DNA from: Torpedo marmorata
Lineage: Eukaryota
DNA: 64,000 nt
NCBI GenBank assembly: GCA_977017645.1
Contig: OZ360230.1
Span: 85,498,001-85,562,000 of the forward strand
Direction of reading: 5' to 3'
A model generated the notes under the pieces. The model did no database searches, was not told the DNA's origin, and saw only the letters and a program-made list of their open reading frames with translations. Of this stretch, positions 7,837 through 60,100 are shown one piece after another. Each line of letters starts with the position of its first letter. The stretch's first letter is position 1. The translations under genes and the position numbers were made by a program.

Positions 7837-8257
7837 CAAAATTGCTATTACATTTTGAAAAGGTAAATGAAGTACAACTGATCCAATGTCGTGAAACCCA
7901 CAGAAGCAGCTTTAATGCATTTTCTGCAAATAATCTAAAAAGTCTGTGGGCTTCAATAGGACTGCAAACATCACTTGGAGTTTGGGTGGCCCTTAAATTG
8001 ATCAAATGCTGATTTCTTCAGCAGGAAAAGAAAAGGAAGAGTAAAAGTGCAAGATATTATAGACATATACCATAAAATGCACTTGCCTCAGGATGAAATG
8101 CAAACTTTGCACCATCAACCTTTACAAATTAGATCTCAAACTCCACAACAGGTTTTATTGCAACCAATTTCCTAATTATCAAAAAACCTGGAGACCAATA
8201 TCCTTAGCAGTCATCTACCTATAGATGCAAGCATGAAACTGCAATGCTGTCACTTGC

Positions 8258-8356
8258 CTTGGCCCCCATAACTGCAACCTCTGCTGTTGGCCAAGCATAG
8301 TTCAAGTCTCCTCTTAAGTGCTTGGAGCTCATCACATCATATGCACCACCGTAAGC
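8258..8356 (-). CDS. PCCB: PCCB exon (exon 13 equivalent), [33 protein letters not shown]; GC donor
   Basis: ttaacAG acceptor; 99 nt; donor reads AAG|GCAAGT (non-canonical GC). Confidence 0.94.
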
Positions 8357-9333
8357 CTGTTAAGGAAAGCACATCTTACATGCAATAATTAATGAAAAAA
8401 ACTCTAAATTACTTCGCTTGGACAATTAAGTGAATTCTCCTAAAATACAGTATACAGAGCGGTATCAAAGTTATTTTAGAACTAAGCTCCAAAAACTGTC
8501 ATTTTGTGATGGCAATGGCCCACCCATCAGATCCTTCATTTGCAGCCTGGCCCTGTACCACAGTGACAGTCCATGAAACAGTTGTCCATTTTTTTTTTGA
8601 AGAGAGTCTGTAAAGCAGTGTAGTGGTTCCTTCCAAACAATTGCTTCGTGCAAACCTGTCTTCACCACTCCCCGGTTGCAGCCTGAACACCAACCAACCA
8701 GTCATTCGTGACCAGCTGGGCAAAAGTTATCATTTCATCTGCCCAAAACTTGTTTTTCCAGTCCACAAGCTGTCCAAGAGCAAATGCTGCAGACTAATAT
8801 ATTTTGAAATCAAGCAATGTACTGAGGGAAGCTTTTTGTAGTAAATATAAAGGCTCTGTGGGGAAAAGACAACAGACTGGAGCGTTTTCTCATATTTCAG
8901 AAATATCAGACTATCCTGATTTAAAGTGTAACCTGCACATAATTGGGCAGAATAGTGTGGCAGTAGTTGTACATGTTGAATAGATTTTTTACTGCATGAA
9001 TGAACAGACTTTCTAAATACACCATATTACTTGATTACTGTTTGGTTAAAAGGACACAGAAATTTGCACTGTATTGGGTGAAATCAAGTTTTAATACCAT
9101 GTTAATTAAGCTTAGAGTTAAACATTATGGGAGAAATATGCAGTAGCTGATCTACATACTATAACAACATTTTATGTATTCAGCGATATGCAAGAAATCC
9201 TTTGGCATCTCTGTCTGGAATAAACCATGACATTATTGTGTGAAATTTCCCAAACATTTTCTGAAGTGGACCTATCTGATTCATGTCCCCCATACAGGCC
9301 ATACTGATTAGGTAGGTATATTTCAGACTTTCA

Positions 9334-9456
<123 letters not shown>

Positions 9457-11319: not shown

Positions 11320-11436
<117 letters not shown>

Positions 11437-11696
11437 TTAAAGAAAACAAAAAAACAATTAAACCATGAGTAATGTGAATAAATCTCATTCCTACATTTTT
11501 TTTTCTTAAAAGTGGACAATACCCAGTGAAGGAGATGACATCAATCAAATCAATGAAACAAGGAAATAATTTGGTGGTAACAAGCTTAGAATTTAAAGTC
11601 AAATGACAATATGAAGTAGAGAAACAGAGATATGCCAACTTATATTTCTTGCAACTTAAAATTCAAATAGATTGTTACTGAAAATCAAAATGCTAG

Positions 11697-12583
11697 TGTT
11701 ATGGACCATGACTGACCATTTGGACTGCGGACGGTTAGCAGGAAGGATGAATTCTTTTGGAGTATACACTGGGGCCAGGTACTGAAAGAGTTAACTTCCC
11801 CAGCTACTTGGTGTACCCAGACAAGATACATTGTTGCACTCTTGGTGTACCCAGAGAGAGACCAGAGAAAGAGAGACAGACTGGATAAGATACATTTGTT
11901 TCACTTCTGCAAAAAGCAGGGGCAGATCTCTGCAAAGCAGACACAGTTGTGAGTTGCAAGGCTACAAGACACAGCCAAATCCAGGCGTGTGAAAAAGTCA
12001 AGAGAAAGACTGACAGAATAGCACATGGCCTCCTGTCTCAGAGAGAAATTCTGAGAAAAAGCAACTTCTGTGGAGAACAGGCGTGAGATCAGCGAGACTA
12101 GCTGTGAGATTCAAGCATACGCCTAAATCAGTGGTATACTGATCTGGAACTTGCAATCCTTATGAACCTACAAGAAGGGGACGTCATCAGAGAAGAAAAC
12201 AAGTATTTGTAAGCATAACAGTCATTGTCTCTCTCCAACGTTCATTCAGAAGTACTTCCACCAGACCCAGAGCTGAATTGAAGCCTGAACCTGGAGTGAA
12301 TCTTGTGGACTGAATTATTCTTTTGTTTTTTTGACTGACTTGTTTTTTATGACTGACCTGGGGTTTTTGGGGAAAGTTTTTCCATTTTTACATAAGGGTT
12401 GGGCACAGACTGTAATGGTCTGGGCTTTACACACACCTTTTAGATAAGAATAGAGTTTATAGACGTTTATAGTGGGGTTAATTGTTGTGAAATTATATGT
12501 TTACTTGTGTTTAATAAATAATAATTTCAATTTTACCCCTTTTGCATTGCGTCTTCTGTCGTTGCTGGTTTGATTTTGTAACA
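11697..12583 (+). mobile_element. Solo LTR of the Gmr1-like Gypsy family
   Basis: TGTT...AACA termini; CTAG TSD on both sides; homologous to the LTRs at 56093 and 61922. Confidence 0.93.
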
Positions 12584-13252
12584 CTAGTTCATATCCCAAT
12601 TCAGAAGAACTTCTCATGGTTGAATTCTGGGATTAAAGTTGTATCTTATTATAATTGGGCTTGTATTCATTAGGTGATTTTATAATTTTATTGACACAAG
12701 ATTCACAGATGTATTAAGCAGGTATGGGCCATACCTTTAGAATAATAGAATACCAATAAAATTAAAGATTCTTCATGCTTTGCTCCTAAAAATACAAAAT
12801 GTTTTCCATTCATTTGATTGGGTACCTCAGTGCCGGCTACCAACCTGACAGCTGAGAAACCATGTTGTCCCAGTGGAATGCATGAGAAATCGGATGGAAC
12901 CACAGAAGGGCAGCAGCAGGGGCAGACATAGATGCTGTTCTGCGAGCTTCATGGAGTTTCACTGGAACAGTGCAAGATGTCAAAGACAGGTGGGAGTGGA
13001 TGCTGAATTAAAGTGACAAGCAAAACGAAGTTCAGGGTCACCCTTGTGGTCTGACTGGGGAATTGGCAAAGCAGACATTTCAACTGTGTTTAGTTTTCCT
13101 AATCTTGTAACAACCCAATATGCAAAATACCAAATTTTAAAAAGGTGCACGAATTGCAGTTTAACAACAAGGAGTATTTGGGTTTGTGGACAAGAGGGAG
13201 GAGGTAATGCCATTAAACAATGTATTCTCTGCATCATAAACCTGGTACTCAC

Positions 13253-13376
13253 CTGAAGCCACTTTAGGCTGATTGCCCACAATTCCTACCGTGCATCCAT
13301 TCATTCTGGCAAATCCAATAACAATATTCTTTGCATAATTAGGCATGAGCTCAAAAAAATCCCTTTCATCCACAAT
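13253..13376 (-). CDS. PCCB: PCCB exon (exon 10 equivalent), [41 protein letters not shown](G)
   Basis: ttttAG acceptor and GTGAGT donor; 124 nt; ORF 13161..13373. Confidence 0.96.
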
Positions 13377-14373
13377 CTAAAACAGAATTTCAAAAAGGAG
13401 CTTGTTGAACTGTGGTACATGTTAAAATCAATTCAAACTATGACCAAATCTAAACAAGGCATAGTCCTCAATGGAATTATATTAAACATGCTAGAGTGTA
13501 TTTATGCAAGCGATTGCCAGGAAATTAGTTTACTAGGGTCTGGTTAAACTCCAATTTAAATTAATGTCCAGTTTTCTTCCAGGATTCTCGGACATCGAGG
13601 GACATTGTCGGAGTGGGCTGAGTCAGAGTGGTAAGGCTTTGGCTCAACAGGCTTCGGAGAGAACAGGTAAGAGGCAAGGAATAGTCGGAGTTGAAGTCAG
13701 AAAGGGCCACTCTATTCGAGGAACAAAAAGGATTCAGCAGGTAGACACATTTAAGGGCAGGTTTTTTTGATATCATATATTTTGTTCATCCAGTCATAGA
13801 CAGTGGGAATAGCAGCCAAGGCAGGGGAATGCTCCTCTTGCAAAATGTGGGTCGTCAGGGAAGCCAGCAGTATCCCTGACGACTTCATCTGCGAGAAGTG
13901 CATCCAGCTGCAGCTCCAGACAAGCCGAGTTAAGGAATTGGAGCTGGAGTTTGATGAACTCCGGATCATTCGGGAGGCAGAGGGGGGTGATAGACAGGAG
14001 TTACAGGGACACTATCACACCTGGGAGGCAGGAGGAGAGTAGATGGGTGACAGTTAGGAGAGGGAAAGGGAACAGGTAGGCAGTGCAGGGCACCCCTGTG
14101 GCCGTCCCCCTCAATAACATGTACAGATGCTCCTCGACTTAAGATGGGGTTACATTCCGATAAACCCATCGTAAGTGGAAAAATCGTAAGTCGAAAAAGA
14201 ATTCAATACCGCACCTACCGAACATCATAGCCTACCTTAACCGTGCTCAGAACACTTACCGTAGCCTACAGTTGGGCAAAATCATTAACACAAAGCCTAT
14301 TTTATAATAGTGTTGAATATCTCATGTAATTTATTGAATACTGAAAGAACTTTTGTTCAGCTTAGGCTAGCCC

Positions 14374-14741
14374 TTTTATCTTTTCCGTTTAAAAAAAAAA
14401 AAGATATTTAGTCAAACATGGGTTTATGTGTGATTTTTCACGGAACATGTCAATTAATATGGTGAAAGATACTTTTTTTAAATATAAAGGAATTATTAAT
14501 TTGTCACATTGATTTAGTATTATATTGGGATATATTATGAGCAATGGATTAACCATTAAATATCATAATTTTAGATTTTGACATTTAAAGAAATAACTCA
14601 AACAAACAATTATGGGTATGATTTTGATTTACAGTATGTAAGTGTTACGTGATATATACATGGTAGGATCTGTTCTATGTTATTACTGGATGATTATTAT
14701 GTATTATGATATATATTAAACTCAATAAAAATATTTTTAAA
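14374..14741 (+). mobile_element. AT-rich L1-type 3' UTR fragment
   Basis: 15-bp TSD agcttaggctagccc (14359-14373 and 14742-14756); ends in AATAAA and an A-rich tract. Confidence 0.75.
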
Positions 14742-14780
14742 AGCTTAGGCTAGCCCAGCCCGGGCAAGCCTACCTTAAAT

Positions 14781-17700
14781 AACCATATAACACTTACAGC
14801 ACAGAAACAAGCCAGTTCGGCCCTTCTAGTCCATGCCGAACACCTTATCCCACCTAGTCCCACTGACCCGCACCCGGCCCATAACCCTCCACACCTCTCT
14901 CGTCCATATACCTATCCAACTTTTCCTTAAACATTAAAACTGAACCTGCATCTACCACTTCGGCCAGAAGCTCGTTCCACCCTCCCACCACCCTTTGAGT
15001 GAAGAAATTCCCCCTCATGTTTCCTCTAAACTTTTCCCCCTTCAATCTCAATCCATGCCCTCTTGTTTGAATCTTCCCCACTCTCAATGGAAAAAGCCTG
15101 ACCACGTTGACTCTATCTGTCCCCTTCATAATTTTAAATACCTCTATCAAATCACCCCTCAATCTTCTACGCTCCAGGGAATAAAGTCCCAGCCTGCTCA
15201 ACCTTTCCCTGTAACTCAAACCCAGAAACCCAGGCAACATTCTTGTAAATCTCCTCTGCACTCTCTCTATTCTGTTTATATCCTTCCTATAATTCGGTGA
15301 CCAAAACTGCGCACAACATTCCAAATTTGGCCTCACCAATGCCTTATACAACTTCAACATGACATCCCAACTCCTATATTCAAGACTCTGATTTACGAAG
15401 GCCAACATACCAAATGCTTTCTTCACCACCCTATCTACGTGTGACTCAACTTTCAGGGAATTATGTACCAGAATTCCTAAATCCCTCTGTTCTACTGCAC
15501 TCCTCAATTGTCTTCCATTTAACATGTATGACCTTTGCTGATTAATCCTATCAAAATGTAGCACCTCACATTAATCAGAATTAAACTCCATCTGCCATGT
15601 TTCCGCCCACTCTTCTAACTGTTCTATATCCCCCTGCAAGCTTTGATATCCCTCTTCACTGTCCACAACACCACCAATCTTCGTATCATCTGCATACTTA
15701 CTAATCCAATTTACCACCCTATCATCTCGATCATTAATATATATGACAAACAACAATGGACCCAGTACCGATCCCTGAGGCACTCCACTAGTCACCAGCC
15801 TCCAATTTGACAAACAATTTTCCACCACTACTCTCTGGCATCTCCTAGCCAACCATTGTTGAATCCATTTCACTACTTCAATGTTAATACCTAATGCTTG
15901 AACCTTCCTTATGCGGAACCTTGTCAAATGCCTTACTAAAGTCCACATAGACAACATCCACAGCCTTCCCCTCGTCAACCTTCTTAGTAACCTCATCGAA
16001 AAACTCTGAGATTTGTTAAACACGATCTACCACGAACAAAACCTTGTTGACTACTCCTAATCAATTCTAGTCTTTCCAAATAACTGTATACACCATCTCT
16101 AATAACACTCCATTAATTTACCCACCACCGATGTCAGACTCACAGGCCTATAATTTCCAGGTTTACTTTTGGAGCCCTTCTTAAACAGCGGGATAACATG
16201 AGCTACGTCCAATCCTCCGGCACCTCCCCCGTGGCATTTTAAATATTTCTGTCAGAGCCCCACTATTTGTACACTAACCTCCCTCAGGGTCCTCGGGAAT
16301 ATCATGTCAGGACCTGGAGATTTATCCACCTTTATACTCTTTAAAATAGCCAATACTAACTCCTCATTAATCTTTATATTATCCATGACCTCACTACCAG
16401 ATTTCCTCACTTCACCTAGCTCAATATTCCTTTTCTTTGTAAATACTGAAGAAAAAAATTCATTTAAAATTTCCCCCATCTCCTCTGACTTCTCACATAG
16501 CCTACCTGATCTTCAATGGGCCCAATTTTATCCATCACTATTCTTTTGCTTTTAATATACCTGTAGAAACACTTTGGATTTATTTTTACCTTGCCTGCCA
16601 AAGCAGCCTCATATCTCCTTTTAGCCTTTCTAATTTCTTTCTTAATTTTTTTTTTACACTCCTTATATTCCTCAAGGACCTCATCTATTCCCTGCTGTCT
16701 ATACCTGTTGTACACATCCCTCTTCCTCCGAACCAAATTCCCAATATCCTTTGAAAACCAAGGCTCCCTATATTTTCTAACTCTTCCTTTAATCCTCACA
16801 GGGACGAACCGACTCTGTACTCTCAAAATTTCCCCTTTGAATATCCTCCATTTATCTGAGACATCGTTCCCTGAAAATAAATGATCCCAATCCACACCCT
16901 CTAAATCCTTCCTCATCTCCTCGAAATTTGCCTTATTCCAATCAAGAATCTCAACCTTAGGCCCAGCCCTATCCTTCTCCATTATCAACCTAAAACTAAT
17001 AGTATTATGATCACTCGACCCAAAGTGTTCCCCAACACAAACCTCTGTCACCTGACCTATCTCATTCCCAAATAGGAGATCCAATACTGCCCCCTCTCTA
17101 GTCGGTTCTTCTATATATATTGATTTAGAAAACTTTCCTGAACACATTTGACAAACTCCAACCCATCCAGCCCTATTACAGTATGGGCGTCCCAGTCAAT
17201 GTGTGGAAAGTTAAAATCACCTATAATCACCACCTTATGTTTATTACATATATATTCTATCTCCTTACACTCCCATTAGTGTTTTCATGCCTTTCGCATT
17301 CCTCAATTCCACCCAAATAGCTTCACTGGACGAGCCCTCCAATCTATCCTGCCATAGCACCGCTGTAATGCTTTCTCTAACAAGCAATGTGACTCCTCCA
17401 CCTTTTATCCCCCCCTGTTCTATCACGCCTAAAACAACGGAATCCAGGAATATTTAGCTGCCAATCATGCCCCTCCTGCAACCAAGTTTCACTGATGGCT
17501 ACAATATCATATTTCCATGTATCAATCCATACTCTAAGCTCATCCATCTTTCTTACAATGCTCCTTGCATTGAAATATATACACTTGAGAGAATGTCCCC
17601 CACATACACTTCTTTGATTACCCTCTCCTTCATTAACTTTAACATTCTGGTTCCTCTCTTCCTTCAAATCTAGGTGTTCTTCTACCCTAATCTCCGCATT

Positions 17701-18305
17701 CTCATTCTGATTCCCACCCCCCTGCCAAACTAGTTTAAACCCTCCCCAACAGCTCTCGCAAACCTGCCCGCCAGGATATTGGTCCCCCTCCAGTTCAAGT
17801 GCAGCCCATTCCTTTTGTACAGGTCAGACCTTCCCCAGAAGAGATCCCAATGATCCACAAATGTGAACCCCTGCCCCCAGCACCAACTCTTTAGCTACGC
17901 ATTCTTCCTCCACATCTTCCTTTTCCTACCCTCTCTAGCGCGTGGCACAGGCAGCATTCCAGAGATTACCACCCTCGAGGTCCTGCTTTTTAACTTCCTT
18001 CCTAACTCCTTATATTCTTTCTTCAGGACCTCATCCCCACTTCTTTCTATGTCATTGGTCCCCATGTGGACCACGACATCTGGCTGCTTGCCCTCCCCCT
18101 CCAGAATGCTATGTACTCAATCAGAGACATCCCTGACCCTGGCACCCGGAAGGCAACATACCAACCTGGAGCTCCGATCTCGTCCAGCAAACCTTCTATC
18201 TGTTCCTCTAACCAGCGAGTCCCCAATTACAAAAGCTCTCCTCTTTTCCCCCCTTCCCTTCTGAGCCGAGGGGCCAGCCCCCCTGCCAGAGACCTGATCC
18301 CCGCG
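14781..18305 (-). mobile_element. CR1 LINE (partial ORF1 esterase + ORF2), degenerate
   Basis: ORFs 18117 (VIGDSLVRG), 17377, 16464, 15571 ([12 protein letters not shown]) and 14854. Confidence 0.9.
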
Positions 18306-21300
18306 ACCACTTACCATAGCCTACAGCTGGGCAAATTTATCTAAAACAAAGCCTATTTTATAATTAAATGTTGAATACCTTTTATTTCACACTGAAAAAA
18401 ATAATTTTTAATCATAAAATATAGTGCCAGCCAAAGCATCCATCAGCTGTTGCGCGATAACCAATAACGACAGTCACACCAACACGCGGCGAATTATGAA
18501 ACTACAGTACCAAGTGACTACGTACAGGTATTTTCATTAGAATGCATCTCGCTATCGTACCATCGTAACTTCGAAAAATCTTAAGTCGAATCATAAGTAG
18601 AGGAGCATCTGTATACCATTTTGGATACTGTTGGGTGGGGGGGGGGTGGAAACTACCAGGGACAAGCCACGGAGATCAGGTTTCTGGCACGGAGTCTGGT
18701 CCTGTGGCTAAGAAGGGAAGGGAGGAGAAGAGGCGACAGATAAGAGGTTGTGTGGAAGAGTTGGAGTATCCCGGATGGTATGTTGCCTCCCTGGTGCCAG
18801 GGTCCGAGATATCTCAGATCGAGTTCACGGCATTCTCAGGAGGGAGGGTGAGCAGCCAGATGTTGTGGTCCATGTAGGGACCAATGACGTGGGTAGGAAG
18901 GGTGAGGAGGTCCTGCAAGGAGTCGGAGTTAGGCGCTAGGTTGAAGGACAGGACCTCCAGGGTAGTGATCTCAGGATTGCTACCCGTGCCACGTGCTAGT
19001 GAGGTGAGAAATAGGAGGATAATGCAGCTTAACACGTGGCAAAGACATGGTGCAAGAAGGAGGGATCCAGTTTTCTAGATCATTGGGCTCTCTTCTAGGG
19101 AAGGTGGGACGGACCTGTTCCGACGGGACGGTTTGCATCTGAACTGGAGGGGGACTAATATCCTTGCGGAAAGGTTTGCTAGTGCTGCTCCAGTGGGTTT
19201 AAACTAGAATTGCAGTGGGAGGGGAATCAGAGTGTCAGAGCAGATAGAGGAGTGGAGGAGGGAAAAGATCATTTTAAAATTGCATGCACCGTTAGAAGTC
19301 AACGGGTTGAACGTGGTGGAAATGTTCTCAGGTGCATCTATTTCAATGCAAGGAGTATTGTAGGAAAGGCAGACGAGCTTAGTGCGTGGATTGGCACATG
19401 GAATTATGACATTGTGGCCATTAGTGAAACTTGGTTGCAGGAGGGGCAGGACTGGCAGCTCAATGTTCCGGGCTTCCATTGCTTTAGACGCGATAGAACA
19501 GCCAGGGGGGGGGGGGGCGGTGGTGAAAGGGGGAGGAGTGGCATTGCTCGTCAGGGAAAATATCACAGCTGTGCTCAGGCAGGACAGACCAGAGGGCTCG
19601 TCTACTGAGGCTATATGGGTAGAGCGGAGGAACGGGAAAGGTATGACCACACTCATGGGGTTGTATTATGGACCACCCAATAGTCAGCGAGAATTGGAGG
19701 AGCAAATCTGTAGAGATAGCAGACCGCTGCAGGAAACATAAGGTCGTGATAGTAGGAGATTTTAACTGTCCATATATTGACTGGGACTCCCATACTGTAA
19801 AAGGGCTGGATGGCTTGAAAGTTTTCTAAATCAATATATAGAGGTACCAACTAGAGAGTGCAATATTGGATCTCCTATTAGGGAACGAGACAGGACAGGT
19901 GACAGAAGTATGTGTAGGGGAACATTTTGGGTCCAGTGACCATAATGGCATTAGTTTTACGTTAATTATGGAGAAGGATAGGTCTGGGCCTCAGTTTGAG
20001 ATTCTAAATTGGAGAAAGGCCAATTTTGAGGAAATGAGAAAGGATCTAGAATGCGTGGATTGGGATAAGTTGTTTTTCGTGCAAGGATGTGCGAGGTAAG
20101 TGGAGGACCTTCAAAGGTGAAATTTTGAGAGTATAGTTTGTATGTTCCTGTCAGGATCAAAGGCAAGGTTAGAAGGCATAGGGAACCTTGGTTTTCGAGG
20201 GATATTGGGGATCTGGTTCGGAAGAAGAGAGAGGTGTATAACAGGTATAGGCAACATGGAGCAAATAAGGTACTTGAGGAGTATACAAAATGCAAGAAAA
20301 ACCTCAAGAAAGAAATCAGGAAGGCTAAAAGAAGACATGAGGTTGCTTTGGCAGACAATGTGAAGGAAAATCCTAAGGGTTTCTACATGTATATTAAGAG
20401 CAAAAGGATAGTAAGGGACAAAATCGGTCCCCTTGAATATCAGAGTGGTCGACTTTGAATGGAGCCAAAAGAGATGGGAGAGGTCTTAAATGGTTATTTT
20501 TCATCAGTATTCACTCAGGAAAAGGGCACAGTCGTGGGATGTAAGGAAAACAAGCAGTGAGGTCATGGAACCTATACAGATTAAAGAGGAGGAAGTGCTT
20601 GCTGTCTTAAAGCAAATAAGGATGGATAAATCCCCAGGGCCTGACAACGTATTCCCTCGGATCTTGAGGGAGGCTCGTGTAGAAATTACAGGGGCTCTGG
20701 CAAAAATATTTAAAATGTCCTTCGCCACGGGTGTGGTGCCAGAGGATTGGAGGGTAGCTCACGTTGTTTAAAAAAGGCTCCAAAAGTAACCCCGGAAATT
20801 ATAGGCCGGTGAGCCTGACGTTAGTAGTAGGTAAAATATTGGAAGGTGTTCTAAGAGATCGGATATACAATTATTTGGATAGCCAGGGACTGATTAGGGA
20901 TAGTCAACATGGCTTTGTGAGTGGTAGGTCGTGTTTAACCAATCTTAGAGTTTTTCGAGGAGGTTACCAGGAAAGTTGCTGGTCAGGGAAAATATCACAG
21001 CTGTGCTTAGACACGACAGCCCAGAGGGCTCGTCTACAGAGGCCATATGGGTGGAGCTGAGGAACGGGAAAGGTGTGACTACACTGATAGGGTTGTATTA
21101 TAGACCGCCCAATAGTCAGAGAGAATTAGAGGAGCAAATCTGAAGAGAGATAGCAGACCGATGTAAGAAACAGAAAGTTGTGATAGTAGGAGATTTTAAC
21201 TTTCCACATATTGACTGGGACTCCCATACTATAAAAGGGCTGGATGGCTTGGAGTTTATCAAATGTGTTCAGGAAAGTTTTCTAAATCAATATATAGAGG

Positions 21301-23543
21301 TACCAACGAGAGAGGATGCAATACTGGATGTCCTATTAGGGAACCAGACAGGTCAGGTGACAGAACTATGTGTAGGTGAACATTTTGGGTCCAGTGACCA
21401 TAATGTCATTAGTTTCAAGTTAATTATGGATAAGTATAGGTCTGGTCCTCGAGTTGAGATTCTAAATTGGAGAAATGCCAATTTTGTGGAAATAAGAAAG
21501 GATCTAGGAAGAGTGGATTGGGATAAGTTGTTGTCTGGCAAGGATGTGTTCAGTAAGTGGAAGGCCTTCAAAGGTGAAATTTTGAGAGTGCAGAGTTTGC
21601 ATGTTCCTGTCAGGATTAAAGGCAAAGTTAACAGGCATAGGGAACCTTGGTTTTCAAGGGATATTAGCAATCTGGTAAAGAGGAAGAGAAAGGTGTATAG
21701 CAGGTATAGGCAACAAGGAGCAAATGAGGTACTAGAAGAATATGGAAAATGTAAGAGAATACTTAAGAAGGAAATCAGGAAGGCAAAAAGAAGACATGAG
21801 GTTGCTTTGGCAGATAATGTGAAGGTAAACTCTAAGGGTTTCCACAAGTATGTTAAGATTAAAAGGATAGTAAGGGACAAAATTGGTCCCCTAGAAGATC
21901 ATAGTGGTCATCTATGTGTGGAGCCTCACGAGATGGGGGAGATCTTAAACAGTTTTTTTGCATCAGTATTTACTCAGGAAACTGGCATAGTGTATAAGGA
22001 AGGAAGGGAAACAAGCAGTCGTGGCATGGAACATATAGAGATTAAAGAGGAGGAGGTGCTTGCTGCCTTACAGCGAATAAAGATAGATAAATCCCCCGGG
22101 CCTGACATGATATTCCCTCGGACCTTGAGGGAGACTAGTGTAGAAATTACAGGGGCCCTGGCAGAAATATTTAAAATGTCCTTAGCCACGGGTGAGGTGC
22201 CGGAGGATTGGAGGGTAGCTCATGTTATTCTGTTGTTTAAAAAAGGCTCCAAAAGTAAACCAGGAAATTACAGGCAGGTGAGCCTGACATCAGTCGTGGG
22301 TAAATTATTGGAGGGTGTTCTGAGAGATAGGATATACAAGTATTTGGACAGCCAAGGGCTGACTAAGGATAGTCAGCGTGGCTTTGTGCGTGGTAGGTCG
22401 TGTTTACCAAGAAAGTAGATGAAGGAAAGGCTGTGGATGTTGTCTACATGGACTTTAGTAAGGCCTTTGACAAGGTCCCACATGGGAGGTTAGTTTAGAA
22501 GGTTCAGACACTAGGTATCCATGGAGAGGTTGTAAAATGGATTCAAAATTGGCTGAATGGGAGAAGCCAGAGAGTGGTAGTGGATGATTGCTTCTCAGAC
22601 TGGAGGCCTGTGATTAGTGGTGTGCCTCAGGGATCGGTGTTGGGACCATTGTTGTTTGTTGTCTATATCAATGATCTGGATGATAATGTGGGAAATTGGA
22701 TCAGCAGGTTTGCTGATGACTAAGATTGGAGGCGTTGTGGACAGTGAGGAAGGCTTTCAAAGCTTGCAGAGGGATCTGGACCAACTGGAAAAATGGGCCA
22801 GAAAATGGCAGATGGAATTTAATGCAGACAAGTGTGAGGTGTTGCATTTTGGAAGGACTAACCAAGGTAGGACATACATAGTAAATGGTAGGGCACTGAG
22901 AAGTGCGGAGGAACAAAGGGATCTGGAAATACAGATACATAATTCCCTGGGTTGTAAGAAAGCTTTTGGCATCTTTGCCTTCATAAATCAAAGTATTGAG
23001 TACAGGAGTTGGGATGTTATGGTGAGGTTGTATAAGACATTGGTGAGGCCAAATTTGGAGTATTGTGTGCAGTTCTGGTCAACTAACTACAGGAAGAGAC
23101 AGGAAGGATATCAGTAAGATCGAAAGAGTGCAGAGAAGATTTACTAGGATGTTGCCGGGTCTTCAGGAGTTGAGTTACAGGGAGAGATTAAACAGGTTGG
23201 GACTTTATTCCTTAGAGCATAGAAGAATGAGGGGAGATTTGATAGAGGTTTACAAAATTATGAGGGGAATAGACAGAGTAAATGCGAGTAGGCTCTTTCC
23301 ACTTAGATTAGGAAAGATAAATATGAGAGGACGTGGCTTTAGGGTGAAAGGTTTCGGGGGAACATTAGGGGGAACTTCTTTACTCAGAGAGTGGTGGGAG
23401 TTTAGAACGAGCTGCCATCTGACGTGGTAAATGCGGGCTCACTCTTAAGTTTTAAGAATAAATTGGGTAGATACAAGGATGGGAGTGATCTGGAGGGTTA
23501 TGGAATGGGTGCAGGTCAGTGGGACTCGAGCAATGGGAGGTCA

Positions 23544-27507: not shown

Positions 27508-27516
27508 TATTTCTAC

Positions 27517-28389
27517 TGTTACAAAATCAAACCAGCAACGACAGAAGACGCAATGCAAAAGGGGTAAAATTGAAATTATTATTTATTAAACACAAGTAAA
27601 CATATAATTTCACAACAATTAACCTCACTATAAACGTCTATAAACTCTATTCTTATCTAAAAGGTGTGTGTGTGTGTAAAGCCCAGACCATTATGTAAAA
27701 ATGGAAAAACTTTCCCCAAAAACCCCAGGTCAGTCATTAAAAAAACAAGTCAGTCAAAAAAACAAAAGACTAATTCAGTCCACAAGATTCACTCTCTAAG
27801 TTCAGGCTTCAATTCAGCTCTGGGTCTGGTAGAAGTACTTCTGAATGAACGTTGGAGAGAGACAATGACTGTTATGCTTACAAATACTTGTTTTCTTCTC
27901 TGATGACGCCCCCTTCTTGTAGGTTCATAAGGATTGCAAGTTCCAGATCAGTATACCACTGATTTAGGCGTATGCTTGAATCTCACAGCTAGTCTCGCTG
28001 ATCTCACGCCTGTTCTCCACAGAAGTTGCTTTTCCTCAGAATTTCTCTGAGACAGGAGGCCATGTGCTATTTTGTCAGTCTTTCTCTGACTTTTGCACAC
28101 GCCTGGATTTGGCTGTGTCTTGTAGCCTTGCAACTCACAACTGTGTCTGCTTTGCAGAGATCTGCCCCTGCTTTTTGCAGAAGTGAAACAAATGTATCTT
28201 GTCCAGGCTGTCTCTGTCTCTCTCTCTCTGTCTGGGTACACCAAGAGTGCAACAATGTATCTTGTCTGGGTACACCAAGTAGCTGGGGAAGTTAACTCTT
28301 TCAGTACCTGGCCCCAGTGTATACTCCAAAAGACTTCATCCTTCCTGCTGACCGTCCGCAGTCCAAATGGTCAGTCATGGTCCATAACA
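27517..28389 (-). mobile_element. Solo LTR of the Gmr1-like Gypsy family, inserted into a Penelope pLTR
   Basis: TGTT...AACA termini; CTAC TSD; the Penelope sequence resumes (atttctac|ctttgctac). Confidence 0.93.
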
Positions 28390-30669
28390 CTACCTTTGCT
28401 ACATAAAAGACACTGTCTGACCTGCTGAGCTTCTCCAGCATTTGTGTTTTTTACTTCAACCATGGTGTCTACAGATTTTCGTGATTTACTTCATGACAAT
28501 GTGTTAAATTGGATCAGCAAGTTTGCAGATGACACTAAGATTGGAGGTGTTGTGGACAGCGAAGAAGGTTTTCAAAGCTTGCAGAGGGATCTGGACCAGC
28601 CTGAAAAATGGCAGATGGAATTTAATGCAAACAAGTGTGAGGTGTTGCATTTTGGCAGAACAAACCAAGAAAGGACATACACGGTAAATGGTAGGGCACT
28701 GAGGTGTGCGGTAGAACAGAGGGATCTGGGAATACATATACATAATTCCCTGAAAGTGGTGTCACAGGTGGATAGGGTTGAAAAGAGAGCTTTTGGCATA
28801 TTGGCCTTCATTAATCAAAGTATTGAGTACAGGAGTTGGGATGTTATGTTAAAGTTGTATAAGACATTGGTGAGGCCAAATTTGGAGTATTGTGTGCAGT
28901 TTTGCTCACCTAACTACAGGAAAGATATCAATAAAATAGAAAGAGTGCAGAGAAGATTTACTTGGATGTTGCCCAGACTTCAGGAACTGAGTTACAGGGA
29001 AAGGTTAAACAGGTCAAGACTTTATTCCCTGGAGCGTAGAAGAATGAGGGGAGATTTGATAGAGGTACCTGTATTTAAAATTATGAGGGGGATAGACAGA
29101 GTAAACGTAGGTAGGCTTTTTCCACTGAGGGTAGATGAGATACAAACCAGAGGACATGGGTTAAGAGTGAAAGGGGAAAGTTTAGGGGGAACATGAGGGG
29201 GAACTTCTTCAAACAGAGAGTGGTGGGGGTGTGGAACGAGCTTCCAGCTGAAGTGGTGAATGTGGGCTCAATTTTAACATTTAAGAGGAATTTGGACAAG
29301 TACATGGATGGGAGAGGTATGGAGGGCTATGGACTGGGTGCAGGTCAGTGGGACTCGGCAAAAAAAAAAATGGTTTGGCACAGACTAGAAGGGCCAAAGA
29401 GGCCTGTTTCTGTGCTGTAATGTTCTATGGTTCTATGACCACCCACTACGATCAACATAAATAATTTATCAACTACCCTGGGAAATAGTGACCAGCTCCA
29501 AATATTTAAAATATTTTCTAAGCTGGTAAATAGTGAATAAGCAGAGATTTATGACGGAAGAATTTAAAGCACAAAGCAAGGGAACCAGTACAAAAACAAA
29601 ATTAATGCAAAAGGAACTGTTGGCTTTTTTTTCCCCAAGAGAATAGGAAGTTATGCTGCAGCTGCAGAGATGGTCAGATCCCACCTGGCCTCCTGCAATT
29701 AGTTCTGTACACTGCACCTCAGAATATACTGCTGCGGACCATACAGTACTTTCTCACCAGAATTATATCGCACAAAAGACAGCATTTGAACTTGCGTTTG
29801 TCCTTGCTTTTAAAACAAGTAGTCGAATCACTGCCTTTCTCAGCTCTCTCCAAATAGTCTTGCAAATTCTTATTGAATCTGGTTCCATCACTTTACTTGC
29901 GAGTTTGTTTTATATTCCAAACTGTTGCAGTATTGAGTGAAATGCCTATTAAAAGTCCATTTACACACTGGTTTCACTAGTTAAATTAATCCTTGCATCA
30001 AGGTTAGTCAAATACATTTTTTCCTTAAGTGTACAAAATGTTATTGATTTTTATTGTCTAATTAATTATGTTCCACAATAATGCCAATAAAATGTTCTGA
30101 TTTTTAAGCTAAAGGCCTTTCATTGCCAAGTTTACATTTCACCTGCTCTTTTTGAATGAGAGTCTAATATATGTAATCCTCCAGTTCCATACCCGAAGAA
30201 TTATCAACAAAGCTTCAATTTCAATTTTATTTACCTTAGTAACATTGGATAGATCCCATCCAGATCATGTGCCAGACCTTTGATCTAGTAACTTTAATTA
30301 TTTTTACGATTGCTTCACGTATTTATTTTAAAAATTTTTGGATATGCTATTCTTTTTTAAAAAAAATTTTATGGACTGTCTTTGCCCCTCAAATGACAAC
30401 TGAATTATGAACGCAACATTTAAAACAAAAAATACACCATACAACTCATTAAGATACATATACGATTCACTAAGATCATGGCATCAGTCCATTCATTTTC
30501 ACAACCCATCTCCATATTCGCACAGGTCCAAAACCAATCTGTCTTGAATATGCTCAACTACAGTCACTGTTTGCAGGATAAAGAATTACAATGATTCTTC
30601 ATCCCCCATTGAAGGAATTTCTTCAGAACTCACTTCGAAATGGATGACTCCCCACCAACTCCAAACTCT

Positions 30670-52164: not shown

Positions 52165-52239
52165 TGTATTAATTCAGCACATTTCAAATGCAAAATATTG
52201 ATTGCTCAATAACATGTACTCTTCTAAAAGTCACCTCAC

Positions 52240-52348
52240 CTGAAACTGCAGTGTGGGTCTTTGCACCACCAAGATCTTCCTGAGTCACATCCTCATTTGT
52301 AACAGATTTCACCACATCTGGGCCAGTAATGAATAAGTAAGAGGTACC
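52240..52348 (-). CDS. PCCB: PCCB exon (human exon 7 equivalent), [36 protein letters not shown](G)
   Basis: Manual translation; ttttgcAG acceptor and GTGAGG donor; 109 nt; carboxyl-transferase motif [10 protein letters not shown]. Upstream exons were not found in the window. Confidence 0.95.
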
Positions 52349-54231
52349 CTGCAAAACCACAACACTGATCTAATTAGGATTAATTCTGATAAAGGAATAA
52401 GCAGCACAAATGTAAGCCTTTTAAGAAAAAGACCAGCTACTTGCAGCACATCTTATACTTCACACATTTTGCTTTGTTTAAAATCAAGTACTCATTTGGC
52501 AACACAAAGCAATCCCGAAAACCAAAAATATCAATCTGACCTGACCACATAACAACACATTAAAGTTTGTGGAAAATTGCACTGAAAGAAAAATAGGAGT
52601 CTCAAAATAAACAGCTGGGTGGACTACTTCACTGAAATACATCAGAGCTAGACACAAGCCCAGATTTTGTTCGTGTACCAAGTCAAATGCTAAACCAAAA
52701 CTTGAAAGGAAAATAACTTTCTCTGATTCCCAAAACCTTCATAAGACAGTGGCAGCACAGATAGCAAGCAGTGTGTCACGATTTCAGAAAATTGTGCATG
52801 ATTGCTCCAAATTCAGTCAGTACGGTTTAATGTCAGTAAGGTAAATGGCCAGCTTTGAAGATGATCCAAGTTCAATCAACACCAAGGAACAAGGAAAGAA
52901 ATACAAGCATTTCTTCTTACAATAGGTTGATGGGGGAGCTCTGTGACAAACAGGCCAAAGGTGGTTCTGACATTTTCACAGCACAACATGCTGAGGATCT
53001 GTGTCAAATCCTCGAGCCTTCCTGTGCTCCATCACAGAATATTTTAGAAGACAGTGATTAAAAAAAATACCAATAAGCACAGAGATGTTGGATGGGGTGA
53101 TCTCATTCAAGCAACATGGGGATTCAATTCACTTGAATCTGGAAGAGTTGCCCTCTCTGATATTGTTCATTCACTCTGTGGAGCCAATTGCCATGTCCAT
53201 TGGGAATGATATTGGTATCTAGGCAACTACCAGGGACAGCGGAGTCACCCAGGTTAGTATCTCCCACACATGCATGGTACCACTACCTTGCTCTCACCAG
53301 TCTTCAGTCCACAACCTTGTGGGCGCCCGTGACCTTGGGAGCAAGAGTAAACTGGAGCAAAGTGAGAACTATATTTTTCTACCTTTCTATCCTTCACCAT
53401 CATATGAAGATAATAAAGATCTCGGTTAGGGTAGGTACACACCAGCACCAAAAATTGGAAAGATTGAGTTACCATGGTCAAACAAACGGTAGTTAGCTGA
53501 ATATCAAGAGCTCATAGGAGGTAAAAAATATATCAGATTTAGGCAAATCCCTCAGAGTACAATTGCAGAAATACACGAGAAAAATCAGGAAGGTAAAAAG
53601 AAGGCATGAGATGTATGTGGCAGGCTGGGTAAAGGAAAATCCCAAGGGAATCTACAGGTATATTAAGAGCAAAAGGATGGTTCTGAAGAGAATTGGTCAC
53701 CTTAAAAATCAGCATGACAGTCTTTGTGTGAGATTTTTAAATGAATATTTCTCATCAGTTTTCACTGTGGAGAACAGCAAGGTGTTATTTTGAATGGAAT
53801 TAAATTCAAGTTTATTTATCATCCAATTGTAACAGTGCAACCCAACGAAACAGCATTCTCCAGTCCACGGTGCAAAAACAGTGCAAACACACATGCAGAC
53901 AAACTATACATATGCACAGATAGACAAAACCTATGTACATGTCTTGTATACGTATATTAAAAATTTAGCAAGGTGTTTAACAAGATCTTGCATGGTAGGC
54001 TAGATCATGTGGAATCCAAGGTGAGCTGGTTAGATGAATTCAAAATTGGCTTGGAAGTAGAAGTCAGAAGGTTGTGGTAGAGGGTTGCTGTTCTGATTGG
54101 AGGCTTGTGTCCAGCGGTGTGCTGCAGAGAATAACAGTGCTGCGTCCACTGTTTGCAACATTAAGTTTGCATAACATCGTAGTTAACAAATTAATAAATT
54201 TGCAGGTGGACAACAAGAAAGGATATTAAAG

Positions 54232-55770: not shown

Positions 55771-57010
55771 TGTCATAACATTGAAAGGATGCAGAACAGA
55801 TGATGTTCCTGGGACTTGGAGGCTTGATTTATACAGGCTGGATAGGCTAGGTCTTTATTCCCTGGAATGTTGGAGGCAAAGGAACAATCAAAGAGAGGTA
55901 TATAAATCATGAAGGGAATGGATAAAGTGAATGCTCAGTCTTTTTCCCAGGGCAGTTGATTCCAGAACTAGAGGGCATTGGTTTAAGGTGAGAAGGGAGA
56001 GATTTAAGGGGAACTTAAATGGCAACTTTTTCCACTCAGAGGTTAGTCTGTATCTGGAATGAGCTGCCAGAGGAAGCCGTAGAAGAGAATACTGTTAAAA
56101 ATTCAAACCAGCAACGACAGAAGACGCAATGCAAAAGGGGTAAAATTGAAATTACTATTTATTAAAGACAATTAAACATATAATTTCACAATTAACCCCA
56201 CTATAAACGTCTATAAACACTATTCTTATCAAAAAGGTGTGTGTGTGTGTATTAAGCCCAGACCATTACAGTCTGTGCCCAACCCTTATGTAAAAATGGA
56301 AAAACTTTCCCCAAAAACCCCAGGTCAGTCATAAAAAACAAGTCAGTCAAAAAAAAGGATAATACAGTCTACAAAATTCACTCTCTAAGTTCAGGCTTCA
56401 AATTCAGCTCTGTGTCTGGTAGAAGTACTTCTGAATGAACGTTGGAGAGAGACAATGACTGTTTATGCTTACAAATACTTGCTTTCTTCTCTGATGACGT
56501 CCTCTTCTTGTGTGTTCATAAGGATTTAGAGTTCAGATCAGTATACCACTGATTTAGGCGTATGCTTGAATCTCACAGCTAGTCTCGCTGATCTCACTGA
56601 TCTCACGCCTGTTCTCCACAGAAGTTGCTTTTAACTCAGAATTTCTCTGAGACAGGAGGCCATGTGCTATTCTGCCAGTCTTTTCTCTGACTTGCACAAA
56701 CCTGGATTTGGCTGTGTTCTGTAGCCTTTGCAATTTACAACTGTCTGCTTTTCCTGCAGAAATCTGCACCTGCTTTTTGCAAAAGTGAAACAAATGTATC
56801 TTGTCCACAGTCTCTCTGGTCTCTCTCTGTCTGGGTACACCAAAAGTGCAACAATGTATCTTGTCCACAACTTGTCTCTCTCTCTGTCTGGGTACACCAA
56901 GTCCTGGGGAAGTTAACTCTTTCAGTACCTGGCCCCAGTGTATACTCCAAAAGACTTCATCCTTCCTGCTGACCGTCCGCAGTCCAAATGGTCAGTCATG
57001 GTCCATAACA

Positions 57011-57142: not shown

Positions 57143-60100
57143 TTAACATCTAGAAAGACAATCAGCAATTACATTATCTTTCCCTTTTATATGAGTGATT
57201 ACCAAATTATATTCTTGCAAAATTAGACTCCAATTCAACAACCGTCGATTCTTATTTTTCATTTTACAAAGAAAAACCAATGGATTATGGTCAGTATACA
57301 CTATGAGTGGTTTTTGAGCTGTACAGATATACACATCAAAGTGTTGTAGAGCCAACACAAGAGCCAACAACTCTTTTTCCATGGTTGAATAATTCCTTTG
57401 ATGATCATTGAACTTCTTCGAGAAGTAGGATACCGGATGGTCAATGTCCTCTTCGTTCTTCTTCTGTAACAGCACCGCACCCACAGCTTCATCGCTGGCA
57501 TCCACGGCTAAAGAAAACGACTCTTCTAAATTAGGTGACTTAAGCACAGGTTGGTGGCATAACATGGCTTTCAATTTGACAAATGCTTCCTGACAACCTG
57601 TTGACCATACAAATTTTTCTTTCTTTCTAAGCAAATTTGTGAGAGGGAGCGCAAGATCAGCAAAGTTTTTACAGAACTTGCGGTAGTAGCCAATCACTCC
57701 CAGGAACCTCCTCAGAGTTTTCTTACCAGTTAGAACAGGGAACTCAGAAATAGCGACAACCTTTGCCTCTACTGGTGCCAACTGCCCCTGTCCTACTACA
57801 TAACCCAGATAAATAACAGTAGCATGTCCAAACTCACTTTTACTTAAATAAACTGTGAGTTTTGCTTTGGACGGTCGTTCGAACAATTGTTTTAGCTCAA
57901 AGACATGCTCTTGCCAGGTCTCACTACTTACAATTAAATCATCAATGTAAGCACCTGTGTTTTTCAACCCTTGAATCACTGAATTAATCATTCTCTGAAA
58001 TGCTCCTGGAGCATTCTTCATACCAAAAGGCATAACATTATACTCATACAGCCCAAAAGGTGTTACGAATGCAGAAATCTCCCTAGCCCTTTTTGTCAAA
58101 GGAACACACCAGTATCCTTTTAATAAGTCAATTTTTGTAAGAAATTTGGCCTTCCCAACCTTGTCTATACAATCGTCTATTCTAGGAATAGGATCAGCAT
58201 CTGTCTTGGTTACAGCATTTACTTTCCTATAATCAGTACAAAACCTAACCGTTCCATCAGGCTTCGGCACTAGAACACAAGGGGAACTCCAATTGGAAGT
58301 AGACTTTCGAATGATATTGTTCTTTACCATGTAGTCAATTTCCTGATCTACCAGTTTGCACTTTTCCGCATTGATTCGATAGGGATGCTGTTTTATCGGT
58401 CTTGCATCTCCTACATCCACATCATGATAAGCGATGGAAATTTTCTGAGGCACATCAGGAAATAAACTTATAAACTTTAAAAATAACTGATTCATCTCTT
58501 CCTTTTCTGAAGTTTTCAGATGAGCCAACTTTGTCTCCAGATTGCGCAAAATCGTGGAATTTTCCAACCTCGGGCTTATCAATTTCTGTGTCCCATGACC
58601 CTCTCTGAAACTGGTTTCATCTGTCTTCTCCTTACCCTGATCAATAACCAGTACCTCTGGTAAATTTTCAGTCCCTTTGTGTGGCACCTGTTCAAAATAT
58701 GGCTTAATCATATTCACATGACAGACCTGTGTGTCTCGTCTGCGATTAGGTGTTTCTATGACATAGGTGACATCATTAATTTTTGACTTAACTCTATAGG
58801 GTCCTGAAAATCTAGCCCTAAGAGGATTTGAATGGATGGGAAACAGAACTAATACATTCTCACCAGGTTTAAAAGTACTCATCTTCGCCTTTCGATCATA
58901 CCAAACCTTCATTCTCCGTTGAGTGGCCTTTAAATTCTCCTTTGCCATCTCACAAGCCGTATGTAATCGATCCTTAAATTTGGAAACATAATCTAACAGA
59001 TTTAAATGCACATCATGATTAATCCACTGTTCTTTTAATAATCTTAAAGGACCTCTCACCTCATGTCCGAAAACTAACTCGAATGGACTAAAACCAAGTG
59101 AGTCTTGGACAGACTCCCTCGCTGCAAATAACAACAAATGAACCCCCTCATCCCAATCCTTTTCCTTCTCACAACAATAGGTTCTAATCATGGTTTTCAA
59201 AGTCGAATGGAACCTCTCCAAGGCCCCTTGACTTTCTGGATGGTACGCAGAGGATACAATCTGTTTAACTCCTAGTCCATCAACCACTTATTGGAAAACG
59301 CCTGACATGAAATTACTGCCCTGATCTGATTGAATTTCCCTTGGCAAACCTACCAAGGTGAAAAACTTTACCATAGCCTTTACAATTGACTTTTCTTTTA
59401 TGTTTCTCAGAGGAATGGCCTCTGGAAATCTGGTGGCTGCACACATAATTGTTAACAAATACTCATTCCCCGCTTTGGTTTTGGGCAATGGGCCAACACA
59501 GTCCACAATTACTCTCGAGAAAGGCTCACTGAAAGCAGGGATAGGTTGCAAGGGTGCCACTGGGGGACCCTGATTAGGTTTACCCACCACCTGACAAGTG
59601 TGACAGGCCCGGAAAAAGCTTACAACCTCCCTTCTTAAACTGGGCCAATAAAATTGTTTCATTATCTTCCGTATAGTTTTCTTCACCCCAAGGTGACCAC
59701 CTCAGGGTGTACTATGAGCCAAAGTTATTATTGCATCCCTATATACTTTAGGGATCACAACCTGCTGCACTACTGCCCATTCTTCATTGGCAGGAACATC
59801 ACGTGGTCTCTACTTTCTCATCAACACCCCATCTTTTTCATAATAATCCACTGGCACCTTTTTAATCTCCTCTTCAGAGAGAACCTTATCCGTCACCTCA
59901 GCAAGATCAGGATCGTCCTTTTGCCTTGCTATTAACTCCTGTCGGGATAGTGACAAATCTGTGCCTTTAGGTGTCTTATCAGTGGATGGGTGTAACATAG
60001 GAGATAGCTCAACCTTTTCCAGGTTTTCTTGATTATCAGTGTCTTTTTCTTTGACCAAGTTATTTTCCACTGCCTTCTCTACAGTGACATTTTTCTTCGA

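Follow-up and report, generated by a model that had tools for sequence, protein, structure and literature searches.

Golem is a Tigger transposon described from mammals only, as a 3 kb element without an intact ORF. Its published ORF (positions 463-2307, 615 codons) carries CENP-B_N, HTH_Tc5 and DDE domains, and several internally deleted non-autonomous derivatives are known. The published distribution takes in primates, squirrel and other rodents, and horse; additionally, a 'marsupial Tigger3' is named in one paper, its ends resembling those of an anole MITE. Hellen and Brookfield (PMC3268980, PMC3525145) found it patchily distributed, with ancestor dates that predate the host range, and an extra-mammalian origin is among the possibilities they named.

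The survey of Zhang et al. (2020, PMC7070016) covers events of the kind considered here and counts 975 transfers, 24 of which involve mammals or birds; of three cartilaginous genera checked in its genome list, Callorhinchus and Rhincodon are in and Leucoraja is out. Diaby et al. (2022, PMC9219625) likewise read Tiggers common to mammals and cartilaginous fish as transfers. However, their mammal-shark pairs have other TIRs and lie at distances of 0.65-0.70, against 0.19 for the lineage described below, which was measured differently, in amino-acid changes per site. The TIR and peptide motifs of that lineage are absent from the available part of their supplement, as are the names Golem and Tigger3 from the available text, and their rodent 'TigA3' clade was rejected as the counterpart of our Glires matches, given its different TIR motif and the absence of the peptide motifs. 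The MER6 MITE, which carries a fish V-SINE domain (PMC6887750), is also a TA-flanked, patchily distributed mammalian MITE with a non-amniote source, but it belongs to another family and is a chimera of a turtle Mariner and a bony-fish SINE. Whole pogo transposase ORFs have also been kept in host genes, namely TIGD2-7, JRK, CENPB and CENPBD1 (PMC7386202). This report concerns a Tigger family of the ray Torpedo marmorata, the transposase of which is as similar to rabbit's as rabbit's is to squirrel's. Judged from its sequence, the family has probably passed horizontally between lineages of mammals and of cartilaginous fishes, whether straight from one to the other or by way of a third host.

An interrupted MITE in a PCCB intron

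The window, i.e. the whole stretch of 64,000 nucleotides analysed, contains an inert non-autonomous pogo/Tigger copy (a MITE) that is split by two LINE insertions. It lies in the intron upstream of a PCCB exon (13254..13376, minus strand) encoding residues 323-363 of mitochondrial PCCB, with 35/41 residues identical. The initial annotation's TA-flanked TIRs were borne out. Read in the direction of the parent's transposase gene, the left TIR (14124..14145, plus strand) forms the 3' end, the right TIR (18590..18611, minus strand) emerged from an inverted-repeat search, and the unstranded TA target-site duplications at 14122..14123 and 18612..18613 are given by the sequence and by empty-site reconstruction. 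Taken with the TA on each side, the arms (14122-14145 and 18590-18613) are 24 nt long, i.e. 22 bp plus TA, and 92% complementary.

Three plus-strand pieces, proposed earlier, proved collinear in alignment with an intact copy on another contig (L006); only the start of the right-hand piece had to be moved, from 18309 to 18305. Piece 1 (14124..14373; 91% to L006) holds the TIR, subterminal short repeats with a 15-bp tandem at 14168-14198, and the first copy of an internal duplication of ~100 bp. Piece 2 spans 14757..14780; the region 14742-14797 is 86% identical to L006, with the element part stopping at ~14780. Piece 3 (18305..18611; 94% to L006) has the second copy of the internal duplication, a subfamily-specific middle and subterminal repeats. 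Rejoined, the MITE is ~590 bp long and non-coding. Between pieces 1 and 2 sits the 3' end of a LINE (14374..14741, plus strand), of putative L1/Tx1 type, that is AT-rich with a poly(A) signal and an A-rich tail, and is bordered by a 15-bp duplication (14359-14373 and 14742-14756). It has 529 candidate relatives in the genome, and in longer copies (L147, L150) the sequence further upstream reads as an ORF2-like C-terminus that includes a Cys/His knuckle. The second insertion (14781..18304, minus strand) is a 5'-truncated CR1-type LINE of ~3.5 kb with a broken reverse transcriptase (RVT_1 at 15574-16026); ~7 bp of the MITE are missing at its junction and a clear duplication is absent.

The MITE itself entered another CR1, the left flank of which (13839..14121, plus strand, start approximate) belongs to the ORF1 region and is 94% identical to a CR1 copy in L008; the right flank (18614..20093 at least, plus strand) is 87% identical to L008 over 1568 columns, and an endonuclease frame follows further along at 21144-22415. 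Excising the MITE and one TA in silico restores the ORF1 reading, and the junction matches other CR1 copies. The nesting put forward initially therefore stands, since the junction rejoins ORF1, but the host CR1 is readable in patches only, with stops and frameshifts. The accompanying age argument, by which the MITE would not be ancient, carries little weight given the slow and uncertain rates of elasmobranchs; by published shark rates, the burst could date from anywhere between ~30 and ~250 Myr.

The MITE family and its parent transposon

About a thousand candidate relatives of the MITE are present in the genome. The left end gave 936 first-look candidates, of which 40 were scored (39 non-self, at 86-93%), and the right end gave 1328. 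Both termini were present in 24/29 non-self loci fetched, and 21 of those 24 had TA on both sides. The family is thus short, non-coding and of many copies, as is usual for MITEs, and has its ends in common with an autonomous element. Subtypes of ~590 and ~650 bp are specific to the ray, and the 650-bp form carries the first codons of the parent transposase.

The initial annotation had called for an autonomous transposase copy to be sought, and a parent element of ~2.27 kb, with 1194 candidates in the genome, was found. Aligning 11 of 21 fetched long copies gave an open 603-codon consensus transposase, from which ten of the 11 lie at K2P 0.031-0.046 (3-5%), figures that lean low since the best-matching copies were used. 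Parent and MITE ends are alike, at ~84% over the left 90 bp and ~90% over the right 60 bp. The transposase has CENP-B_N, HTH_Tnp_Tc5 and DDE_1 domains (P0001 and P0002 score above curated cut-offs) and a DD32D catalytic triad, the second Asp being separated from the third by 32 residues; pogo/Tigger triads range over DD29-56D (PMC7386202). Together with the TA duplication and short TIRs, the three domains and the DDxD triad are those of a pogo/Tigger element. A second, diverged ray lineage, L130, lies at dS 0.24 from the consensus. L130, conceivably a domesticated ray gene, still has a TIR and TA.

Going by pogo biology, the parent transposase would act on the MITE in trans, binding its TIRs and subterminal repeats, excising it and pasting it into a TA, here within the CR1 in the PCCB intron. 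The two LINEs would have inserted afterwards, leaving the copy immobile in practice.

Relatives of the family in skates and mammals

The protein searches see predicted proteins only, and the best 120 of 1398 and the best 120 of 278 matches were listed. Among the matches listed, the closest were rabbit (81%), Fukomys and Octodon (78%), squirrels and skates (69-78%), with the next at <=66%; shorter matches add lemur, monkeys and apes, and a frog fragment reaches 73% over 171 aa. Named matches at >=74% among these predicted proteins belong to Euarchontoglires and skates only. No close match in Narcine or Mobula, where dead copies would be missed by such a search, and no close horse protein was among the matches listed. 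Patchiness is therefore only a tentative reading, as the survey covers predicted proteins and listed matches and misses dead copies. A 50%-cluster protein library yielded no closer full-length relative. A search of sequencing runs found 33-41% of words in 9/22 runs from three organisms, one possibly the source sample; the other 13 runs (four organisms), at 6-7% of words, were counted as no evidence. Viral, genome and metagenome contigs scanned for exact motifs gave zero matches, blastn against plasmids and phages gave none, and none of 597 pattern matches in a protein-guided metagenome scan was confirmed.

On 490 shared columns, ray and rabbit transposases are 84.5% identical, compared with 84.7% for both rabbit-squirrel and rabbit-Fukomys, 82.4% for ray-skate, and only 60-65% for catfish, alligator and Narcine paralogues. 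RAG2 gives the host background, with ray identities of 94% to Narcine, 85% to Mobula, 82% to Amblyraja, 73-81% to sharks and 51-53% to mammals, and by this gene the host places as an electric-ray-like batoid. Transposase tree distances are 0.19 for ray-rabbit and 0.21-0.41 for ray-skate, whereas those of RAG2 are 1.04-1.11 for ray-mammal and 0.21 for ray-skate. In the transposase tree, whose mammal and skate rows represent captured or decayed copies rather than active elements, ray, skates and mammals form a 100/100 clade that excludes the nearest rows found from bony fish, turtle and crocodilians. In a 30-row tree the stems from the skate and mammal ancestors total ~0.04 changes per site; support for the deep forks of this tree drops to 81-85.

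The likeness continues outside the coding region. Primate-type protein records with read-through peptides were back-translated and compared with ray DNA at fixed bases; agreement was 76/93 and 34/40 for the ray leader and 39/41 for the trailer region, a range of 82-95% that is inflated by gapped local alignment. Alignment scores were 42-77, versus shuffle maxima of 24-29 (40 shuffles each). In each of five translated tests, 0/200 shuffles reached the observed score, two of the five being marginal (27.8 vs 24.4 bits; 27.0 vs 26.5 bits). These matches fall in parts of the family that are absent from the window copy, and the two large MITE pieces of the window matched none of 579 proteins compared. 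Because the similarity extends into the non-coding leader and trailer, confinement to the TIRs, named initially as a finding that would speak against transfer, does not hold for the family.

Apparently retained transposase ORFs occur at CMC2 in Glires, PTRH2 in primates and SNRPG in skates. They are not among the 12 domesticated genes named in the available portion of PMC7386202, and neither the rabbit accession nor 'COX assembly' occurs in what was available of its eight supplementary files.

A probable transfer, its route and rival explanations

The transposase identities and tree set against RAG2, together with the non-coding leader and trailer match, make horizontal transfer likely. Probably, the lineage entered batoids and the primate-rodent-rabbit branch by transfer rather than by descent from a common ancestor. 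Zhang et al. (2020, PMC7070016) found DNA transposons to evolve neutrally inside genomes, with purging at transfer alone; with near-equal transposases in lineages split for ~470 Myr, at least one transfer would be needed. The element is closer than host genes when compared with RAG2, as it is in short non-coding stretches, but not when compared with PCCB exons, and its tree departs from that of the hosts. The transfer first suggested on a presumed block-for-block resemblance to the human Tigger3a/MER7A consensus thus gains from the clade, the ray-rabbit closeness and the leader and trailer, but little from the age argument.

The route is harder to fix. A direct passage between batoids and early placentals, with no intermediate host, is rather unlikely, although such a jump may have occurred; it is the same explanation with the route specified. 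Mammalian rows nest among batoid rows, as sisters to skates at 96/92 in a 20-row tree, and L130 suggests more depth in batoids. However, the nesting is nonsignificant, as a batoid-only clade remains compatible with the AU test (p 0.055), and in the 30-row tree close relatives (P0569, P0484, P0455) lie in the clade or at its base. We know of no ecological contact between batoids and early placentals, which also counts against direct passage. The most likely route would be repeated invasion from one circulating lineage, with P0569, a 600-aa intact relative, branching at the base of the clade.

The family is probably Golem/Tigger3 of mammals, to which it is likened by published description. The name, which we take to be Tigger3/Golem (Tigger3a/MER7A), is consistent with the published features, and the Tigger3 ends as we presume them to be agree with the ray element and were not counted as evidence. 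A transfer in which the mammalian partner was a sister Tigger family, so that the name would be wrong, is quite unlikely. In its favour, no close horse protein was among the matches listed despite full-length Golem being abundant in horse. Against this, domain order is as given for Golem (an order common to all Tiggers), ORF size is close (590-603 aa here), and the relatives found fall in primates, squirrels and other Glires, where Golem and its deletion products have been reported. Unlike Golem, the ray parent is 2.27 kb with an open consensus ORF, and the family has its own MITEs. Six element motifs did not occur in the full texts of papers, PMC7325037 has no mention of Golem or Tigger3, and PMC1914374 gave nothing relevant; no report of the ray-mammal pair or of the CMC2/PTRH2 ORFs was found in literature exclusive of subscription journals, Repbase Reports and Dfam notes.

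Under vertical descent, a single strongly constrained Tigger lineage would have remained active from the jawed-vertebrate ancestor onward, with a slow chondrichthyan clock and loss in most other lineages; we regard this as very unlikely. Descent alone could still account for 84% identity in a constrained protein, since PCCB exons hold 85-97% at such distance (36/37 and 35/41 residues identical to the solved mammalian enzyme). Published shark rates are low, batoid monophyly is not rejected, and absence elsewhere was judged from predicted proteins only. Yet the transposase distance from ray to rabbit equals that from ray to skate, while those for RAG2 differ five-fold, and the leader and trailer are conserved despite being non-coding. 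Furthermore, ray copies decay near-neutrally (pooled pN/pS 0.71, 15 copies), as is general for DNA transposons within genomes (Zhang et al. 2020, PMC7070016), and Golem was not found in opossum or wallaby. Finally, human DNA contamination, to which human repeats commonly give rise, or misassembly can practically be discounted, given that the copies are spread over many chromosome-scale contigs, where they are bounded by TA duplications of their own and by ray LINE sequence, that they form ray-specific subtypes and yield an open consensus ORF, and that skate RefSeq proteins belong to the same lineage.

Within the transfer reading, a fuller course of events is offered tentatively. Golem/Tigger3 may have come from or through cartilaginous fishes, with skates, electric rays and early Euarchontoglires invaded in roughly the same era and the transposase later retained, each time independently, as coding sequence of the host in Glires (CMC2), primates (PTRH2, catalytic domain deleted) and skates (an SNRPG fusion). 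Transfers reaching mammals are rare in the events surveyed (PMC7070016). Most human DNA-transposon families have no known source, and for one Tigger family of primates and Glires the close relative seen in rays and skates, which has an open consensus transposase, would point to a source lineage outside mammals. It would also answer the puzzle of Hellen and Brookfield (PMC3268980, PMC3525145). The work also points to three candidate domesticated genes, of which no description was found in the literature searched, and the shared element may serve as a calibration point for the disputed neutral rate of batoids.

The window copy and its setting in PCCB

The element at 14124-18611 is a real, dead MITE. 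As the initial annotation had described, it is bounded by terminal inverted repeats (TIRs) flanked by TA, with arms at 14122-14145 and 18590-18613 of 24 nt including the TA and 92 % complementary. Its three pieces (14124-14373, 14757-14780 and 18305-18611) are collinear with an intact 592-bp copy on another contig, aligning at 91, 86 and 94 %, respectively; the join first proposed thus stands, except that the third piece begins at 18305 and not at 18309. An outer CR1 was entered by the MITE, which then received two LINEs. One, 368 bp long and accompanied by a 15-bp duplication, is probably the 3' end of an L1/Tx1-type LINE; the other is a 5'-truncated, 3.5-kb CR1 on the minus strand. ORF1 of the outer CR1 is rejoined once the element and one TA are removed, although the reading frame, previously called still readable, is so only in patches. 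On another contig (L008:1501-2100, G000:C2), a MITE of this type occupies the corresponding TA in a CR1 of the subfamily found at 14122-18613, in opposite orientation. The two copies either hit a favoured site independently or arose by duplication and inversion; genome-wide, this junction pattern occurs at two such sites, plus one doubtful match.

The MITE lies in an intron of PCCB, as minus-strand Carboxyl_trans exons on either side (52229-52363, 13245-13385, 11320-11442, 9346-9453 and 8252-8368) match mitochondrial PCCB structures; the gene extends past the window. Elsewhere, minus-strand LTR-retroelement frames at 57143-61663 encode reverse transcriptase and RNase H, the upstream frame containing a SCAN domain. 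Repeats of ~920 bp (56093-57010 and 61922-62842) flank these frames, and two relatives of the repeats, at 11694-12587 and 27513-28392, resemble solo LTRs.

The MITE family and its parent transposon

In the ray's own 6.2-Gb genome, candidate left ends number 936 and candidate right ends 1328, both being lower bounds rather than copy numbers, and the non-self copies among 40 left ends scored are 86-93 % identical. Both ends are present in 24 of 29 non-self loci fetched, 21 of these 24 having TA on both sides, and flanks at 22 insertion sites lean towards purine-T-A-pyrimidine. Two length classes make up the complete loci: nine copies of ~590 bp, to which class the window copy belongs, and 12 of ~650 bp. 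With three deleted or mixed copies excluded, leave-one-out K2P is 0.022-0.052 for the former, 0.033-0.067 for the latter and 0.033 for the window copy, values that lean low, since the copies sampled are those closest to the query.

An autonomous-type parent was found, as the initial annotation had proposed to look for. One of 30 DDE_1 loci fetched (L051) has both ends in common with the MITE, its transposase frame being opposite in orientation to the window copy, and its 5' part has 1194 candidates in the genome. A 2.27-kb consensus from 11 near-complete copies (21 long copies examined) has an open 603-codon frame with CENP-B_N, HTH_Tnp_Tc5 and DDE_1 domains and DD32D spacing. Ten of the 11 lie at K2P 0.031-0.046 from this consensus, of which every copy is itself part, the eleventh being without one end. 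The 650-bp type contains the leader and first codons of the parent transposase gene, which ties the MITEs to the parent; however, little of the left block of the window copy is present in the parent copies seen, and the exact ancestor would therefore be a longer variant, not found here. Pooled pN/pS for 15 transposase copies against the consensus is 0.71, and these copies decay close to neutrally, given selection for long frames. Pogo transposases supplied in trans bind TIRs and subterminal repeats and insert at TA; by analogy, the parent transposase would have bound those of the MITE, which would then have inserted at TA.

Other members were also observed. A diverged one (L130:193-2154, G000:C49; dS 0.24 and dN/dS 0.33 against the consensus) has an uninterrupted 653-residue frame and one recognizable TIR with TA, and is either a second subfamily or a retained gene. 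At three loci (L108, L109 and L098), a 27-bp unit of the transposase C-terminal coding region has grown into arrays with tens of repeats. Long open frames also occur in at least six further pogo/Tigger families of this genome, certain of which exist as near-identical copies on many small contigs (494-495 aa) and are possibly recent.

Relatives in skates and mammals

When a natural ray copy (P0002) was searched against 5.8 billion proteins, the best 120 of 1398 matches were headed by rabbit (81 %), Fukomys and Octodon (78 %) and cluster representatives with squirrel and skate members, followed by skates (69-75 %) and then by named matches at ≤66 %. Shorter relatives of the rabbit protein occur in lemur, capuchin, colobines and apes (best 120 of 278). 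Across 490 gap-free columns, identity of the ray consensus is 84.5 % with rabbit, 82.4 % with the nearest of the skates and 60-65 % with lineages further out; rabbit itself shares 84.7 % with both squirrel and Fukomys.

Similarity also extends beyond TIRs and coding sequence for the family, in regions absent from the window copy. As a stand-in for mammalian repeat DNA, predicted proteins that extend into the leader or beyond the stop were back-translated, the fixed-base figures being inflated by gapped local alignment. Non-transposase parts of primate type (P0515, P0561 and P0554, whose transposase part is 94-98 % identical to named primate proteins) agree with the leader of the ray 650-bp type in 76/93 and 34/40 fixed bases and with the gene end plus trailer in 39/41, with ~50 of 67 nt past the stop; in another record (P0484), 60/68 agree. 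These alignments scored 42-77, the highest shuffle scores being 24-29, and in five translated tests the observed score was reached by 0/200 shuffles each, two narrowly. The possibility that similarity might be confined to the TIRs is thus not borne out for the family. Pieces of the window copy, which presumably resemble Tigger3a/MER7A block for block, as the initial annotation proposed, matched none of 579 collected proteins.

Several transposase ORFs of this type have apparently been retained by their hosts. An intact ~590-aa ORF found in rabbit, squirrels, marmot, mole-rat and degu and annotated as a CMC2 isoform (P0004, P0008, P0009 and P0131-P0134) retains the catalytic Asp triad, has a common three-residue deletion and is likely a domesticated gene of Glires. 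An internally deleted ~321-aa form (P0422, P0540-P0547, P0190 and P0441), with DNA-binding domains kept and DDE lost, is open from lemur to apes and annotated as a PTRH2 isoform in several species; one ape-like variant (P0435) has a frameshift. Skate proteins from Leucoraja as well as Amblyraja (P0143 and P0144) fuse the SNRPG LSM domain to this transposase.

Probable horizontal transfer and its timing

The proposed horizontal transfer is favoured by the trees, with reservations. Rows from ray, skates and mammals group together (100/100) in 20- and 30-row trees, in agreement with a 50-row quick tree, and the ray-rabbit transposase distance is 0.19 (ray-skate 0.21-0.41), whereas RAG2 gives 1.04-1.11 for ray-mammal and 0.21 for ray-skate. 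By its RAG2, a single match, the host is an electric-ray-like batoid: identity falls from 94 % with Narcine through 85 % with Mobula and 82 % with Amblyraja to 73-81 % with sharks and 51-53 % with mammals. However, PCCB exons are also highly conserved between ray and mammalian enzyme (36/37 and 35/41 residues), so protein identity alone is no proof of transfer. Mammals are sister to skates (96/92) in the 20-row tree, deep forks reach only 81-85 in the 30-row tree, and a batoid-only clade is not rejected by the AU test (p 0.055).

Per-generation rates and generation times in the available part of PMC9826928, where no batoid rate was found, give ~1.6e-10 to 1.1e-9 per site per year; the 3-4 % divergence of ray copies therefore corresponds to ~30 to 250 Myr, and the element, although little diverged, can be called 'not ancient' only loosely. 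The mammalian insertions are older than the rabbit-rodent split, because all Glires rows have the three-residue deletion and the CMC2 annotation extends to six named species, and older than the lemur-ape split, because the internal deletion is common to both. The date ranges overlap, the ray dating being too loose to order events; Zhang et al. (PMC7070016) work with a tree that places the chondrichthyan-bony vertebrate split at ~473 Myr.

Golem, the Tigger3 of Repbase (PMC5753468), has been reported, patchily, from placental mammals only (PMC3268980), and the same authors consider that families whose dates exceed the age of their host range may, among other explanations, have arisen outside mammals (PMC3525145). 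Mammal-shark Tigger transfers claimed in the accessible part of PMC9219625 involve much more distant pairs than the present one, and this ray-mammal pair is not reported in the literature searched, Repbase, Dfam and subscription journals lying outside its reach. An intact 600-aa relative (P0569), 82 % identical to the ray consensus, branches at the clade base, and a circulating Tigger lineage with further hosts is therefore more likely than a direct ray-mammal jump. The ray-mammal pair is likely a new instance, well supported, of horizontal transfer, itself a known type of event.
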